Notes: generated by a model not told the origin, from the letters alone. A DNA stretch of 64,000 nt from Candidatus Pelethousia sp. (GCA_034928145.1 JAYFPE010000004.1:67223-131222); one strand, 5' to 3'; counted from the first letter of the stretch, positions 46,512 through 63,842 are shown. A program made the numbers and translations.

Positions 46512-46913
46512 ATGACACAAGAAGAAAAGGTATTTGCATTTTTTAAGGAGTGCGGCTCGTTTTTCTTTGCCAGCACAGAAGACGGCGAACCCCGCGTGCG
46601 GCCCTTTGGTTTTAAGATGCTATACGAGGGCAGGTTTTACTTTGGCATGGGCACGCATAAGCCCTCCTATAGGCAAACGGTGGCCAATCCGCATGTCGAG
46701 CTTTGCGCGCTCAAAGCGGACGGCAGCTTCCTGCGGGTGCGGGGCAAAGCAGTTTTGGATATGCGCGAGGGCGTGCAGGCGGAGATGTTCAAGACCTCGC
46801 CCAGCTTGCGCACATTATATAATGAAGAAAACGGCCGCATACAGGCCACCTTCTACCTGGAGGATATCGATGCGCGGGTGTATCGGGATGGCGAATATAC
46901 GCATCTGGATTGA
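46512..46913 (+). CDS. pyridoxamine 5'-phosphate oxidase-like FMN-binding protein
   Basis: 133 aa from the internal ATG at 46512. MTQEEKVFAFFKECGSFFFASTEDGEPRVRPFGFKMLYEGRFYFGMG...HVELCALK resembles the small PNPOx split-barrel family. Confidence 0.65.
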   Translation: MTQEEKVFAFFKECGSFFFASTEDGEPRVRPFGFKMLYEGRFYFGMGTHKPSYRQTVANPHVELCALKADGSFLRVRGKAVLDMREGVQAEMFKTSPSLRTLYNEENGRIQATFYLEDIDARVYRDGEYTHLD

Positions 46914-47054
46914 TCTGCCGTTTTGGTTGGCGCGGACGCGCCCGATCACAGCCACCTATGGATCATTTTAAAGGGCAGGCCGCCGGCGCGGGCGCCGCAT
47001 CGGCGGTTGGCTCTTTCAGTAAAAAACAATAACCAAACAGAGGAGGAAATCGGA

Positions 47055-47729
47055 ATGCTAAAAGACTACGACGTCATTATCGATGAAATGGAAGGTAAAC
47101 TGAGGCCGCCTACCGTAGGGATGGTACCCTATGAGCCCAAGGTGATACCGCTGACCACCGGCGAAGATATGCTGGTGCGCGAGGCTACGCGTGAAGAACT
47201 GGTGATGATCATGGACGCCATCGTGCCCCTGTTCAACCACCCGAAGGATTACTACGATATCGTAGCCGCTCGTATCTACACCGAAATCCTTGGCATGCTG
47301 CGTTATCGCGTGCAGGATGAGTACTTCTTCGTAGGCGCTGTGGATGGCGAGATCGCCGGCATCGTCAACGGTCGCTTGGTCAACGAAAAGGTCGGCATGT
47401 CCTACCACACGATGACGCTCAAGCGCGGCGTGCGCGTAGGCGCGCAGCTGTTTGCCGCCAAGATGGAATACCATTTCGATTTCATGAATCAGGACGAAGT
47501 CTTTATCGTGGCCGAATCCCCCAACGGCTTCAAGCGTTGGATGATCGAGTACGAGCTGGAGCCCCGGTTCGAGTGCCCCCACGAGCTGGGTGGCGTACCC
47601 ACCTTCGTGCTTACGCGCGCACTGTGGGAGAAGCATAAGGCAAATAAGAATGTTGGCATCCGGCCGGCGTTTGAGGACGTGATCGAGGCGAACAAGGTCC
47701 TGCGCATGCCTGCCAAGATCAACGTGTAA
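47055..47729 (+). CDS. hypothetical protein (weak GNAT-like acyltransferase resemblance)
   Basis: 224 aa from the ATG at 47055 (AGGAGG upstream). The central FFVGAVDGEIAGIVNGRL...TLKRGVRVGAQLF is reminiscent of a GNAT beta4-alpha3 region but is not a clean motif match. Confidence 0.5.
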   Translation: MLKDYDVIIDEMEGKLRPPTVGMVPYEPKVIPLTTGEDMLVREATREELVMIMDAIVPLFNHPKDYYDIVAARIYTEILGMLRYRVQDEYFFVGAVDGEIAGIVNGRLVNEKVGMSYHTMTLKRGVRVGAQLFAAKMEYHFDFMNQDEVFIVAESPNGFKRWMIEYELEPRFECPHELGGVPTFVLTRALWEKHKANKNVGIRPAFEDVIEANKVLRMPAKINV

Positions 47730-47750
47730 ATAAAAGGAGGGCAAATCGAA

Positions 47751-61284: not shown

Positions 61285-61318
61285 ATTTTCCTCCGTTGCA
61301 CATTGAGAAGGAGGCTAG

Positions 61319-62392
61319 ATGCCTATGCTGCATCAAAAGCTAAAAGCAATACCGGCAAATCGTTACATCGACATGGGGGCTTTCGCCTTGCTGGCCATCT
61401 TCCCGTTGTTGTTTACCCCGTTCCGCACGGAATTAATGGCCAAGGTGCTGGTATATATCATCTTTGCCATCTCCCTGGATCTGCTATGGGGCTATACGGG
61501 GCTGATGAGTATGGGGCACGCCGTGCTTTTCGGCACGGGCGGCTATGTGATCGCCCTCTCCTATACCTTCATCAAGGGCATACCTTGGTATATGCAGCAG
61601 GTGGGGATCGAGAAGACCCCGGCGTTGTTTGTGCCGCTGCAAAACCCTGCCGTCGCCTTTATCGTAGCGCTGGCGATACCGGCGCTCATCGCTTGGTTTA
61701 TCGGCACCTTTATCTTTTCCAGCCGCATTAGCGGAACATTTTTCTCGCTAATCACGCTGGCGCTCGCCCAGATCTTCGAGCTGTTCGTAACGAACCAGCA
61801 CATATATACCAACGGCAGCAATGGTATGGGCGGCCTTGAGCGTTCGCTGCTGGGTAGTGGGCCTATCTCGCTCAATGCGCTATATTATATCCTCTTTGCG
61901 GTGGTACTGTTGGTCTATTTCTTCTGCATCTGGCTCACGAGCACCCGCTTTGGCACGGTTTTGCAGGCCATCCGGGAAAATGAGCCGCGGCTGACTTTCC
62001 TTGGATATAAGCCCAATCGCTTCAAGATCGCCGTATACGTCGTTTCCGGGGTGCTGGCGGGGCTGGCGGGCGTATTGTATATCCCCACCAATGGGTTCAT
62101 TTCCCCTACCGAGGTGGGTCTTACCCTCTCCACGATGCTGCTCGTTTGGGTGGCCATCGGCGGCAGGGGCAACCTGACGGGTGCGATCCTGGGAACGATC
62201 CTCATCAACTGGGCGCAAACGCTGCTTTCTGAGCAGATCGCCGATTACTGGATGCTCATCATGGGCATCGTGGTATTGATCTTCGTGTTCTTCCTGCCCA
62301 ATGGCTTTATCGGCAAGCTGATCGCCACCCAGTATGCGCATGCGGACGCTAAGCGTAAAAACGAAGAAGCGGATCGAAAGGAGGTCTGCTGA
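61319..62392 (+). CDS. UrtC-like ABC permease (Liv/HAAT family)
   Basis: 357-aa LivM-type protein containing DLLWGYTGLMSMGHAVLFGTGGY. Confidence 0.8.
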   Translation: MPMLHQKLKAIPANRYIDMGAFALLAIFPLLFTPFRTELMAKVLVYIIFAISLDLLWGYTGLMSMGHAVLFGTGGYVIALSYTFIKGIPWYMQQVGIEKTPALFVPLQNPAVAFIVALAIPALIAWFIGTFIFSSRISGTFFSLITLALAQIFELFVTNQHIYTNGSNGMGGLERSLLGSGPISLNALYYILFAVVLLVYFFCIWLTSTRFGTVLQAIRENEPRLTFLGYKPNRFKIAVYVVSGVLAGLAGVLYIPTNGFISPTEVGLTLSTMLLVWVAIGGRGNLTGAILGTILINWAQTLLSEQIADYWMLIMGIVVLIFVFFLPNGFIGKLIATQYAHADAKRKNEEADRKEVC

Positions 62393-63156
62393 TGGCTGAG
62401 CCGATTTTACAGGTCACAGGCCTGTATGTGGATTTTAACAAGTTCCAGGCCGTGAGCAACATGAACCTTGCGGTGCAGGAAAACGAGCTAAGGGTGATTA
62501 TCGGCCCCAACGGCGCCGGCAAGACCACGCTGATGGATATGATTACCGGCAAGACCAAGCCTACAGCGGGCAGGATTGTCTTCGACGGGTGCGATATCAC
62601 GGGCAAAAGCCCCAGCGAGATCGCTCTTAAGCATCGGATAGGGCGCAAATTCCAGGGGCCGAATGTATTTGATAACATGACGGCCTACCAAAACATTGAG
62701 GTTGCGCTCTACGGCTACTTCTCCATTCAGCAAACGGTGTTTTTCCGCCGTACCAAGGAGATCGAGGCGCGGGTAAACGCTATTTTGCAGCTGGTGGGCC
62801 TCTATGGGAACCGCCAAACCATGGCCTGCTTCCTCTCCCATGGCCAGCGGCAATGGCTGGAGATGGGCATGGTGATTGCCCAAGACCCCAAGCTGATCAT
62901 TCTGGATGAGCCTACGGCCGGCATGACGGCCGAGGAAACGGCCAAGACCGGCCGCATGATCCAGGAATTCGCGGCGGATCATACCATCATCGTGGTAGAG
63001 CACGATATGGAGTTCGTTAAGCAGATCAGCAACATCATTACCGTGATGCATCAGGGCACGCTCCTGGCCGAGGGTACCTACGAGGAAATGGAACAAAATC
63101 AGGAAGTGGCGCGCGTATATCTCAAAAGCGAGGAGGTCGAACCATGCTCAATGTAG
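62392..63156 (+). CDS. UrtD-like ABC ATP-binding protein
   Basis: 254 aa with Walker A GPNGAGKTT, signature LSHGQRQ and Walker B IILDEPTAG. Its start overlaps the upstream stop. Confidence 0.85.
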   Translation: MAEPILQVTGLYVDFNKFQAVSNMNLAVQENELRVIIGPNGAGKTTLMDMITGKTKPTAGRIVFDGCDITGKSPSEIALKHRIGRKFQGPNVFDNMTAYQNIEVALYGYFSIQQTVFFRRTKEIEARVNAILQLVGLYGNRQTMACFLSHGQRQWLEMGMVIAQDPKLIILDEPTAGMTAEETAKTGRMIQEFAADHTIIVVEHDMEFVKQISNIITVMHQGTLLAEGTYEEMEQNQEVARVYLKSEEVEPCSM

Positions 63157-63842
63157 AAGGCGTAATGGTCAATTACGGCAAGAGCAAGATCATCACCGGC
63201 GTTTCCTTCGAAGCTGGAACCAAGACGCGCATCGCCATCTTGGGGCGCAATGGCGTAGGCAAGACCACCCTGCTCAAAAGCCTGATCGGCGTGCTGCCGC
63301 TGGAGAGCGGAACGATCTCCTTCGAGGGGCAATGCTTGAACAAAATGTCCCCCTACCAACGGTCTCGGGCCGGGATGGGCTACGTGCCACAGGGCAGGGA
63401 GATCCTTTCCAACCTTACCGTGCGCGAAAACCTGGAGTTGGGTATGCTGGGGCACAAGGGCATCAACTGTGCGCAGCAGATGAAAAAGGTGCTGGATTAC
63501 TTCCCCTCGCTTAATGTGCACCTGGAAAGAAAGGGCGGCGTGCTTTCGGGGGGCCTGCAGCAGCAGCTTGCCATTGCCCGCTGCCTGATGGCCGCTCCTA
63601 AAATCATGCTGTTGGATGAGCCTACCGAAGGCATCCAGCCCAATATTGTGGCAGAGATCGCGGATATCCTCATCTCCATCTCCGAGGAAATGTCCATTAC
63701 CACCATCGTAGTGGAGCAGAACCTCAAGTTTGCCCGCAAACTGGCCGATTCCTACCTGATGATGCAGAAGGGCCAGATTGTGGATCGGGGAAGGACCTGT
63801 GAGTTGACGGAGGAGACAGCCAAGCACTACCTGGCCGTGTAG
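63144..63842 (+). CDS. UrtE-like ABC ATP-binding protein
   Basis: 232 aa with Walker A GRNGVGKTT, signature LSGGLQQQ and Walker B MLLDEPTEG. Confidence 0.85.
   Translation: MLNVEGVMVNYGKSKIITGVSFEAGTKTRIAILGRNGVGKTTLLKSLIGVLPLESGTISFEGQCLNKMSPYQRSRAGMGYVPQGREILSNLTVRENLELGMLGHKGINCAQQMKKVLDYFPSLNVHLERKGGVLSGGLQQQLAIARCLMAAPKIMLLDEPTEGIQPNIVAEIADILISISEEMSITTIVVEQNLKFARKLADSYLMMQKGQIVDRGRTCELTEETAKHYLAV

Follow-up and report, generated by a model that had tools for sequence, protein, structure and literature searches.

A two-module gene cluster of Candidatus Pelethousia sp. as a candidate system for anaerobic, oxidative pyrimidine catabolism

We analysed a 64,000-nucleotide stretch of DNA from Candidatus Pelethousia sp. 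(GCA_034928145.1 JAYFPE010000004.1:67223-131222; hereafter the window, with positions counted from its first letter) and, within it, a run of 17 consecutive plus-strand genes at 46512-63842. A first-pass annotation made from the sequence alone had taken this run for a catabolic system for N-heterocycles unlike any described pathway, and had left the substrate unnamed. Comparative genomics fits such a system, no description of it was found in the literature searched, and the evidence points to pyrimidines. We propose that two gene modules, A and B, would together convert a pyrimidine base, anaerobically and oxidatively, to carbamoyl phosphate (a source of ATP) and a malonate-level C3 fragment, a scheme to which we give an even chance; the specific roles suggested for module B and for a trio of proteins in module A are held with less confidence than the scheme as a whole. 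All 17 open reading frames (ORFs) are present within 46.3-63.85 kb with short gaps between them, ORF calling recovered the start/stop overlaps at 50233, 51813, 57761, ~58600, 62392 and 63144, and each domain previously given for the 17 genes was confirmed by Pfam or NCBIfam. The modules and their genes are as follows.

46341-54079 (46.3-54.1 kb), plus strand: module A (operator, PNPOx-like, GNAT-fold, thiolase-fold and DUF35 proteins, AllH/AllF/AllG-like subunits, cyclase)
46512-46913, plus strand: PNPOx-like protein binding flavin mononucleotide, 133 amino acids (PNPOx_N PF01243, 36 bits), first gene after the promoter
47055-47729, plus strand: divergent GNAT-fold protein, 224 amino acids (AlphaFold2 model, Foldseek)
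47751-48947, plus strand: Cys-less thiolase-fold protein (Thiolase_N / Thiolase_C_1)
48960-49325, plus strand: DUF35 (Zn-ribbon/OB) partner (zf-ChsH2 PF12172, weak BbsA match)
49346-50236, plus strand: AllH/YahE-like subunit (DUF2877; PF11392, 74.8 bits)
50233-51816, plus strand: AllF/YahF-like subunit (FdrA family; CoA_binding and Ligase_CoA; PRK06091, 485 bits, above the cut-off of 433)
51813-53240, plus strand: AllG/YahG-like subunit (DUF1116; PF06545, 321 bits)
53279-54079, plus strand: cyclase-family metal hydrolase (PF04199, 121 bits; motif HVGTHLDGPLH)
54175-63842 (54.2-63.8 kb), plus strand: module B (amidohydrolase, three-subunit molybdenum (Mo) hydroxylase, Urt-like ATP-binding cassette (ABC) importer)
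54175-55380, plus strand: divergent CodA/AtzC-family amidohydrolase (Amidohydro_3)
55446-57764, plus strand: large (Mo) subunit of the Mo-hydroxylase (Ald_Xan_dh_C, MoCoBD_1, MoCoBD_2)
57761-58615, plus strand: flavin adenine dinucleotide (FAD) subunit of the Mo-hydroxylase (FAD_binding_5 and CO_deh_flav_C)
58599-59093, plus strand: 2x[2Fe-2S] subunit of the Mo-hydroxylase (Fer2 and Fer2_2)
59180-60343, plus strand: UrtA/AmiC-type periplasmic binding protein (Peripla_BP_5, 365 bits)
60403-61284 and 61319-62392, plus strand: two BPD_transp_2 permeases (Pfam, NCBIfam)
62392-63156 and 63144-63842, plus strand: two ABC ATPases (Pfam, NCBIfam)

Module A carries an AllH/AllF/AllG-like block. E. coli AllFGH is an oxamic transcarbamylase (OXTCase), which converts oxalurate and phosphate to carbamoyl phosphate and oxamate, after which the carbamate kinase AllK makes ATP (PMC11326118). 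FdrA, DUF1116 and DUF2877, all listed in the first-pass annotation, now belong to a characterised family, since E. coli AllFGH phosphorolyses an acyl-urea (PMC11326118); DUF2877 and DUF1116 are now called AllH and AllG in Pfam, and FdrA is AllF. This chemistry makes the transfer of a carbamoyl group to phosphate a better reading of the step than the "CoA- or phosphate-level activation" (CoA, coenzyme A) of the earlier working model, whose remaining elements (import, Mo hydroxylation, ring opening, an FdrA-complex step and a non-thiolytic thiolase-fold/DUF35 step) fit the comparative genomics. In the window, the three subunit genes are adjacent and overlapping, as expected for OXTCase. The block presumably shares the chemistry of AllFGH, with phosphate splitting an acyl-urea to release carbamoyl phosphate for ATP gain, and in some related loci a carbamate kinase is encoded nearby. 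It differs from AllFGH in sequence (39-46% identity), in gene order (F-G-H in E. coli, H-F-G here) and in company, since it sits with a cyclase-family hydrolase and a Mo-hydroxylase and, in related loci, with pyrimidine-type transporters; moreover, its predicted substrate would be ureidomalonate, the homologue of oxalurate that is one carbon longer. The usual OXTCase context was not seen either: among the Pfam and NCBIfam assignments for the window genes that were profiled (33.8-63.8 kb, ORFs before 31 kb being left out), there were no allantoin-pathway families and no ureidoglycolate dehydrogenase, although no search was aimed at allantoin genes, and carbamate kinase gave no match by tblastn of the window, as the first-pass annotation had stated.

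The closest E. coli homologues of the block are instead encoded by yahEFG-yahI-yahJ. The AllF-like subunit is 46% identical to YahF and 39% to AllF, the AllG-like subunit 50% to YahG and 46% to AllG, and the AllH-like subunit 24% to YahE and 33% to AllH, the last over a partial alignment of 117 residues. Orthology to E. coli AllF/AllG was thus rejected, the F and G subunits being nearer YahF and YahG and the order H-F-G being that of the yah cluster, which also has a carbamate-kinase-like gene and an amidohydrolase. The yah cluster lacks a cyclase-family gene, a Mo-hydroxylase and the thiolase-like trio; its amidohydrolase YahJ is 25% identical to that of the window and keeps the canonical His/Glu residues. 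Because this cluster is uncharacterised, it gives no functional anchor. Directly after the AllG-like gene, the cyclase-family protein carries both the PF04199 domain and the HxGTHxDxPxH metal motif of the kynurenine formamidase/isatin hydrolase type. At 51 bits, it falls short of the arylformamidase equivalog cut-off of 223, and its homologues in related loci are up to 92% identical.

We then compared this block across genomes. The DUF1116 protein was scanned against one genome per species, with matches in at least 583 genomes, and the best 80 loci (L004-L083) were examined. The 83-locus set used for counting comprises L004-L083 together with L001, L002, L084 and L085 from protein look-ups; presence and absence were recounted in it by tblastn, because the longest-ORF caller gave spurious opposite-strand ORFs in GC-rich loci, and loci from later look-ups (such as L088-L092) were read separately. 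AllF-AllG-cyclase forms a near-invariant core, with the cyclase present in 76 of the 83 loci and placed after AllG in nearly all. AllG-like homologues at 57-96% identity occur in many anaerobic phyla, and the hosts of the core belong to Clostridia, Anaerolineae, Spirochaetes, Thermotogae, Cloacimonadota, Atribacteria, Tissierellia and further lineages, each known to be anaerobic. Its usual partner is a Mo-hydroxylase in the order FAD-FeS-Mo. Other partners are PucR regulators (31 loci), NCS2 permeases (32), amidases (23), family III CoA-transferases (19) and carbamate kinase (9), the last passing its equivalog cut-off (374 against 358 bits) and occurring also in Moorella.

The nature of these partners suggests what enters and what leaves the pathway. 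Four NCS2 permeases were tested against NCBIfam: uracil permease was the best match for three, and the Moorella thermoacetica protein passes that equivalog (650 against 477 bits), while the permease of L031 resembles PbuX, a xanthine permease. At the other end, four Lachnospiraceae loci carry, directly upstream, an MdcA equivalog (806 against 789 bits), carboxyltransferase, OAD-gamma, biotin carrier and OAD-beta, so that a biotin-dependent decarboxylase set of the Na+-pump type precedes amidase-AllF-AllG-cyclase-hydroxylase-permease. In Anaerotruncus colihominis, a MatC-like dicarboxylate carrier, a CoA-transferase III, an amidase and a carboxyltransferase adjoin PucR-AllHFG-cyclase. Malonate decarboxylase, MatC-like carrier, dicarboxylate CoA-transferase and carboxyltransferase thus point to the exit, and together uracil-type permeases and PucR at the entry, malonate genes at the exit, carbamate kinase and the AllFGH chemistry point to a pyrimidine scheme. 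Among nucleobases, only the C4-C5-C6 unit of pyrimidines yields malonate. The most complete system in a cultivable organism is that of Moorella thermoacetica (L084; CP017237.1, 2.207-2.228 Mb), where one 20-kb stretch carries both hydroxylase types, the uracil permease equivalog, PucR, the trio, a canonical CodA-type amidohydrolase, an NCS1 permease and carbamate kinase; this organism would be a good experimental model.

In aerobic actinomycetes, the established oxidative route for pyrimidines runs from uracil via barbiturate to ureidomalonate; its enzymes are uracil/thymine dehydrogenase, barbiturase (of the AtzD family) and ureidomalonase. In the scheme proposed here, a uracil- or cytosine-type base would likewise be turned into barbiturate and ureidomalonate, then into carbamoyl phosphate and malonamate, and finally into malonate or acetyl-CoA. 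Module B would be the feeder. Its ABC importer would bring in the base, probably cytosine or another amino- or oxo-pyrimidine; its Mo-hydroxylase would add oxygen next to a ring nitrogen, by oxidation at pyrimidine C6 as from uracil to barbiturate; and its divergent CodA-family amidohydrolase would remove or hydrolyse a ring substituent, with barbiturate as the product. Possible entries are cytosine to 6-aminouracil to barbiturate, or cytosine to uracil to barbiturate. In module A, the cyclase-family hydrolase would open the barbiturate ring to the acyl-urea ureidomalonate, the AllH/F/G-like complex would cleave ureidomalonate with phosphate into carbamoyl phosphate and malonamate, and carbamoyl phosphate would give ATP via a carbamate kinase encoded elsewhere. 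The malonamate or malonate-level product would be disposed of by the GNAT/thiolase-fold/DUF35 trio in the lineage of the window, and elsewhere by an amidase, a CoA-transferase and a malonate or malonyl-CoA decarboxylase, leading to malonate, malonyl-CoA, acetyl-CoA or acetate. The proposal shares with the actinomycete pathway the sequence from uracil to a malonate-level product and Mo-type hydroxylation as first step, and would differ from it in ring opening by a cyclase-family enzyme, in cleavage with phosphate to carbamoyl phosphate rather than hydrolysis to urea, and in its strictly anaerobic hosts. In its fully specified, energy-conserving form, which would draw on enzyme families so far without a link to pyrimidines, with the cyclase-family protein as a "barbiturase", the YahEFG-type complex as a "ureidomalonate transcarbamylase" and a DUF35-scaffolded complex that takes malonamate to acetyl-CoA, CO2 and NH3 by amide-to-thioester exchange on the GNAT-fold protein and decarboxylation by the Cys-less protein, the route is doubtful, and we put it forward tentatively.

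The trio itself was examined gene by gene. The first protein, which the first-pass annotation had left as an unknown of 224 amino acids, starts at 47055 and not at the TTG of the longest ORF at 46923, as its homologues show. It matched no Pfam, NCBIfam or PDB profile. An AlphaFold2 model made with database homologues (predicted local distance difference test score 88) matched GNAT acetyltransferases in Foldseek at template modelling scores of 0.5-0.6 and 11-16% identity; almost all of the top 50 matches are annotated as GNAT enzymes, the first, 2qml, being an uncharacterised protein. By this model the protein has a GNAT fold and is now assigned as a divergent member, with acyl-CoA binding or activity putative. 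About 60 of its residues are invariant across phyla, and it adjoins the thiolase-like/DUF35 pair in every mapped locus except L065, in which no thiolase-like gene was detected.

The second protein of the trio had been described as a Cys-less thiolase, and this was borne out. Its nearest structures are the archaeal-type thiolase 7yvy, 4yzo, 6esq/6et9, BbsB (7pxp), Ltp2 (6ok1) and PhlC (5m3k); it is most like archaeal-type acetoacetyl-CoA thiolases (7yvy, 6esq) and is also related to BbsB, Ltp2 and PhlC. The GHP histidine is retained, but the nucleophilic Cys of thiolases ("EAACASG" in 7yvy) is replaced by Pro ("ENGPASG"), which is invariant in 21 of 21 homologues from several phyla. Because Pro replaces this Cys, the protein cannot be thiolytic; with Pro at the acyl-enzyme position and scores below all NCBIfam cut-offs, an identity as thiolase (acetyl-CoA C-acyltransferase) was ruled out.

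The third protein, the DUF35 partner, presumably acts as a scaffold, by analogy with systems in which DUF35 proteins join a thiolase-fold enzyme to a third partner, namely archaeal thiolase/HMG-CoA synthase, PhlABC and the steroid aldolases (PMC12329534). As in archaeal thiolase/HMG-CoA synthase, BbsAB, ChsH-Ltp2, the Shy-Sal aldolases and PhlABC, a thiolase-fold protein and a small DUF35 protein are here accompanied by a third catalytic partner (PMC12329534, PMC6392133), and the classical nucleophile Cys is missing from Ltp2 as well. The trio differs from these complexes in having a GNAT-fold protein as third partner, Pro at the nucleophile position and HDAF at the "HDCF/YDCY/YDHF" position, and in lying in a context of nucleobase catabolism rather than of isoprenoid, aromatic or steroid metabolism. 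Moreover, a Cys-less trypanosome homologue slowly decarboxylates malonyl-CoA (PMC12329534). Speculatively, and after the archaeal thiolase/HMG-CoA synthase model, the GNAT-fold protein might swap the amide of malonamate for CoA, an energetically uphill exchange, and the Cys-less protein might decarboxylate the bound malonyl-CoA, pulling the reaction to acetyl-CoA. By tblastn, the trio occurs in 30 of the 83 loci and the amidase/CoA-transferase/MdcA set in 27, and the two are never found together (Fisher p = 2.6e-7, uncorrected for phylogeny), which argues that they are alternative solutions to the same step. Genes like those of the Malonomonas-type malonate decarboxylase and MatC carrier (an MdcA equivalog, carboxyltransferase, OAD beta and gamma, biotin carrier, MatC_N) lie beside the core in some related loci, whereas in the window they are absent and the trio stands in their place.

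In module B, the amidohydrolase had been called CodA-like, and its best PDB match is indeed E. coli cytosine deaminase (190 bits), followed by AtzC. It falls below all NCBIfam cut-offs, however, and has lost two CodA residues, His214 becoming Leu and Glu217 becoming Asp ("SMLLDDVGD" against "DVHCDEIDD"), while HxH, His246 and Asp313 are kept. Both substitutions are common to all five members of the subfamily (from the window, L001, L088, L085 and L026), the orthologues being 70-87% identical to the window protein; the amidohydrolases of Moorella and of L089 and L090, where they lie beside related ABC transporters, keep the canonical CodA residues. A bona fide cytosine deaminase was therefore rejected, since a metal ligand (His214) and the catalytic Glu217 are replaced.

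The Mo-hydroxylase has the three-subunit Mo/FAD/2Fe-2S architecture and the catalytic Glu ("GIGEHG") of XdhABC/PucCDE-type enzymes. Its Mo subunit lies below every equivalog cut-off, scores 527 bits with the XdhA model (cut-off 780) and has Ser after GGGFGGK ("GGGFGGKS") where true xanthine dehydrogenases have the substrate-binding Glu, a position that we take to be Glu802 of the bovine enzyme; on these grounds, a bona fide xanthine dehydrogenase was rejected. The best solved relative is HcrA of 4-hydroxybenzoyl-CoA reductase (1rm6), and the Mo subunit is 47% identical to the second hydroxylase of Moorella (XDH2) and 30% to the enzyme of L085. At 38-40% identity to the hydroxylase usual beside the cyclase, it was also rejected as an orthologue of that enzyme. 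An XdhC/CoxI-type Mo-cofactor insertion factor was not detected within the 17-gene region; some related clusters encode one (L068, 13546-14358; L078, cluster c85). In Oscillospirales-type clusters, a conserved protein of 180-195 amino acids with no Pfam match is encoded just 3' of the cyclase (L002, 12377-12964; L017, 12376-12918; about nine loci) and is followed by an FAD-FeS-Mo hydroxylase or an NCS2 permease. The window lacks this protein, which may be a maturation or accessory factor of the hydroxylase.

The transporter, previously described as Urt-like, keeps this name only in part. UrtB and UrtD are just above their cut-offs, while UrtC (290.7 against 296.2) and UrtE (282.5 against 285.8) fall just below, and the binding protein is well below with the UrtA model (343 against 492.75 bits), so that five Urt components with a urea-specific UrtA were not found. 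Relatives of the binding protein at 60-66% identity adjoin canonical CodA-type amidohydrolases and PucR regulators, and no urease was found among the called genes of those loci.

A reading of these enzymes that we regard as economical, and as speculation, is that the hydroxylase would turn cytosine into 6-aminouracil and the divergent CodA-like enzyme would turn this into barbiturate. It would explain the differing hydroxylase paralogue, the non-canonical amidohydrolase and the variant cluster of L025-L031, which has a window-type amidohydrolase and a second deaminase-type enzyme and no hydroxylase in its 10-kb flanks. In this variant (Lachnospiraceae / Clostridium spp., Lacrimispora indolis), PucR is followed by AllH-AllF-AllG-cyclase, an 8-oxoguanine-deaminase-like amidohydrolase and the window-type amidohydrolase (71-73% identical), and then by DUF6198, a short-chain fatty acid transporter, carbamate kinase, a PbuX-like permease and a gene resembling orotidine monophosphate decarboxylase. 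Its layout suggests a different substrate, an already oxidised or a diamino compound.

Does module B in fact feed module A? The first-pass annotation had offered the 17 genes as one unit, and a check of their co-occurrence led us to reject this. In L088 and L092, whose binding proteins are 88% and 83% identical, module B stands by itself amid unrelated genes, and most related loci have module A without module B. This pair is joined in the window and L001 only, on the same strand and 95 bp apart in both, and between the modules lies the following element.

54087-54128: stable GC-rich hairpin at the A/B junction, with a 17-bp stem and a moderately T-rich tail (-36 kcal/mol, z = -4.9)

The hairpin is a candidate terminator, attenuator or processing site, and the L001 junction bears one too, of different sequence. 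The modules might therefore be a mosaic of unrelated neighbours, in which B would import and oxidise or deaminate another amide-like N-heterocycle for nitrogen without feeding A. The solitary copies of B, its different internal order in L092 (where the amidohydrolase follows the hydroxylase genes), the many A-type loci without B and the hairpin exactly at the junction in both genomes speak for this possibility. It is nevertheless rather unlikely in our view, because the close, same-strand junction recurs in the window and L001, and because analogous sets lie beside module A elsewhere, so that B-type sets are found in the window, L001, Moorella and L085: in Moorella, module A is flanked by a CodA-type amidohydrolase, an NCS1 permease, a second hydroxylase (in the order Mo-FAD-FeS) and carbamate kinase, and the set flanking it in L085 is comparable. 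Moreover, the same amidohydrolase subfamily (71% identity) follows directly on AllHFG-cyclase in L025-L031. In L088 and L092, nothing relevant follows the last ATPase gene, which makes it unlikely that a carbamate kinase or urease lies just past the end of the window.

Several points weigh against the pyrimidine scheme itself. The analysis establishes which genes are present, how they are conserved and co-occur, the active-site substitutions and the modelled GNAT fold; we infer all substrates and reactions of the scheme, and the whole model rests on gene neighbourhood, active-site inspection and one predicted fold. The markers of entry and exit come from related loci: PucR, a uracil-type permease, malonate genes and carbamate kinase are absent from the window, in which tblastn found no match for amidase, CoA-transferase, MdcA, PucR or NCS2 permease. 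A functional link between the modules is plausible but unproven, as B is found by itself in two genomes and a terminator-like hairpin lies between it and A. The hydroxylase of module B is a different paralogue from the one usual beside the cyclase, and the cluster hydroxylases do not form one orthologous group. The label "deaminase" is uncertain, because the amidohydrolase is without two residues essential in CodA, and the importer resembles urea/amide importers. We know of no cyclase-family enzyme that opens barbiturate. Finally, the CoA-transferase has CoA:oxalate CoA-transferase as its best NCBIfam match (370 bits, below the cut-off of 522), which would fit a route through oxalurate and oxamate.

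Such a route, as in E. coli, would use the Mo-enzyme to oxidise a purine, form oxalurate in later steps and split it by the AllHFG-like complex into carbamoyl phosphate and oxamate, with the amidase and CoA-transferase handling oxamate and oxalate. Besides the CoA-transferase match, it is favoured by oxalurate being the substrate of the sole characterised AllFGH, by the PucR regulators and xanthine-dehydrogenase-family enzyme, and by the PbuX-like permease of L031. We consider it clearly unlikely, however: the window subunits are nearer YahF/YahG than AllF/AllG; three of the four tested permeases have their best match in uracil permease; MdcA, the MatC-like carrier and the biotin-type decarboxylases indicate malonate and not oxalate; the hydroxylases lack the Glu that, by our residue mapping, follows GGFGGK in true xanthine dehydrogenases; and allantoinase, allantoate amidohydrolase, ureidoglycolate dehydrogenase and oxalyl-CoA decarboxylase were not seen in the Pfam tables or gene maps inspected, without a targeted search. 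A route for s-triazines, biuret or urea derivatives, in which an AtzC-like amidohydrolase would act, the cyclase would open a cyanuric-acid-like ring, the AllHFG-like complex would phosphorolyse carbamoyl-ureas of the biuret/allophanate type and the Urt-like system would move urea-like compounds, is very unlikely: the amidohydrolase has AtzC as its structural relative in second place, the transporter is Urt-like and allFGHK adjoins triuret/biuret genes in nitrifier metagenome-assembled genomes (MAGs; PMC12625717), but the Mo-hydroxylase and the uracil-type permease, MdcA, MatC-like and carboxyltransferase genes are left unexplained, and no biuret or allophanate hydrolase was noticed in the inspected loci, where no specific search was made and where the lower-ranking NCBIfam matches for the amidase of L075 include allophanate hydrolase and AtzE.

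Returning to the pyrimidine scheme, module A would be controlled by a LacI-type repressor and a palindromic operator in the window, and by PucR regulators elsewhere. The elements concerned are these.

45024-46169, minus strand, divergent from module A: LacI-family regulator (Pfam LacI and Peripla_BP_3)
46341-46369, plus strand: promoter-like site TTGACA-17-TACATT ahead of module A, the best sigma-70-type match of the region (10/12)
46383-46394: perfect 12-bp palindrome GTAACCGGTTAC just 3' of the -10 box, candidate LacI-type operator
46183-46194: second, imperfect copy of the palindrome, GAAACCGCTTAC, just upstream of the LacI gene start

The regulator has an 81% identical orthologue at the equivalent position in L001 and likely represses module A. 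The L001 counterpart of the promoter is TTGACA-17-TAGATT, and GTAACCAGTTAC lies at the same offset from it; promoter and palindrome are the sole conserved stretch of the corresponding intergenic region in L001, which fits the reading of GTAACCGGTTAC as a putative LacI-type operator. The copy GAAACCGCTTAC is compatible with autoregulation of the LacI gene, but a chance match is not rare, with at least two matches in 28 of 100 shuffles. The first gene after the promoter, for the PNPOx-like flavoprotein, had been counted as part of the set and is not conserved: it is absent from L001, and the sole match among the fetched loci is weak and partial (L067, 28.8% identity over 80 residues, E 1.5e-5). 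With no convincing counterpart in any related locus, it was rejected as a component of the system.

Otherwise L001 repeats the gene order of the window, with most proteins 77-89% identical and AllH 54%; therefore the arrangement is not an accident of a single genome. Close homologues of its proteins are found in Clostridia (Oscillospiraceae-like MAGs, Flavonifractor and others), which makes the source of the window an anaerobic Firmicute, with a G+C content of ~58-60%. A whole-window Rfam scan gave no match to any RNA family, riboswitches included. Upstream of the 17 genes and beyond the LacI gene, the following were noted.

43737-44972, minus strand: PreA-like protein with a DHO_dh domain and a C-terminal 4Fe-4S ferredoxin (PreA model 167 bits, below the cut-off of 335)
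43059-43547, plus strand: ORF of 162 amino acids that matches UDP-glycosyltransferases in their C-terminal region only (UDPGT profile positions 279-410 of 499)
33821-42695: sugar-utilisation cluster (Peripla_BP_4 binding protein, ABC ATPase, permease, FGGY kinase, DUF4867, fucose-isomerase-C-domain protein, LacI-type regulator)

The PreA-like protein adjoins the LacI regulator, has an 80% identical orthologue at the equivalent place in L001 and has no PreT-like gene beside it; it might tie the locus to reductive pyrimidine chemistry. The 162-amino-acid ORF is probably a gene fragment and sits in a G+C dip to 0.525 (42-44 kb), and the sugar-utilisation cluster has no relation to the 17 genes.

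The gene cluster is probably undescribed. In the literature searched, coverage of which was incomplete (most subscription journals lay outside it, so that absence is not proof), we found no description of it or of an anaerobic barbiturate route; the search yielded only the E. coli AllFGH work, the nitrifier MAG study and the DUF35 structural papers. Known anaerobic pyrimidine catabolism is reductive. The first two steps proposed here follow classical chemistry; what would be new are the enzymes that open the ring and cleave the acyl-urea, and the step that conserves energy by phosphorolysis. To our knowledge, uracil dehydrogenase is still without an assigned sequence; the model supplies candidate genes for it and, for barbiturase and ureidomalonase, replacements that are not homologous to them. 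Testable functions also follow for several large uncharacterised families, namely YahEFG-type complexes, the cluster-specific cyclase subfamily, the Cys-less thiolase-fold/DUF35 pair and the divergent GNAT-fold protein. If it is true, the E. coli YahEFG-type paralogues would gain a first function, the trio would be a complex that replaces amidase, CoA-transferase and decarboxylase, and "xanthine dehydrogenase", "cytosine deaminase", "urea transporter" and "acetyl-CoA acetyltransferase" would be mis-annotations for these genes. Many strict anaerobes, including common gut Oscillospiraceae/Lachnospiraceae (Flavonifractor, Lawsonibacter, Anaerotruncus) and the acetogen Moorella, would then catabolise pyrimidines by an oxidative, ATP-yielding route, which could affect the turnover in the gut of pyrimidines and of fluoropyrimidine drugs (5-fluorouracil, flucytosine).

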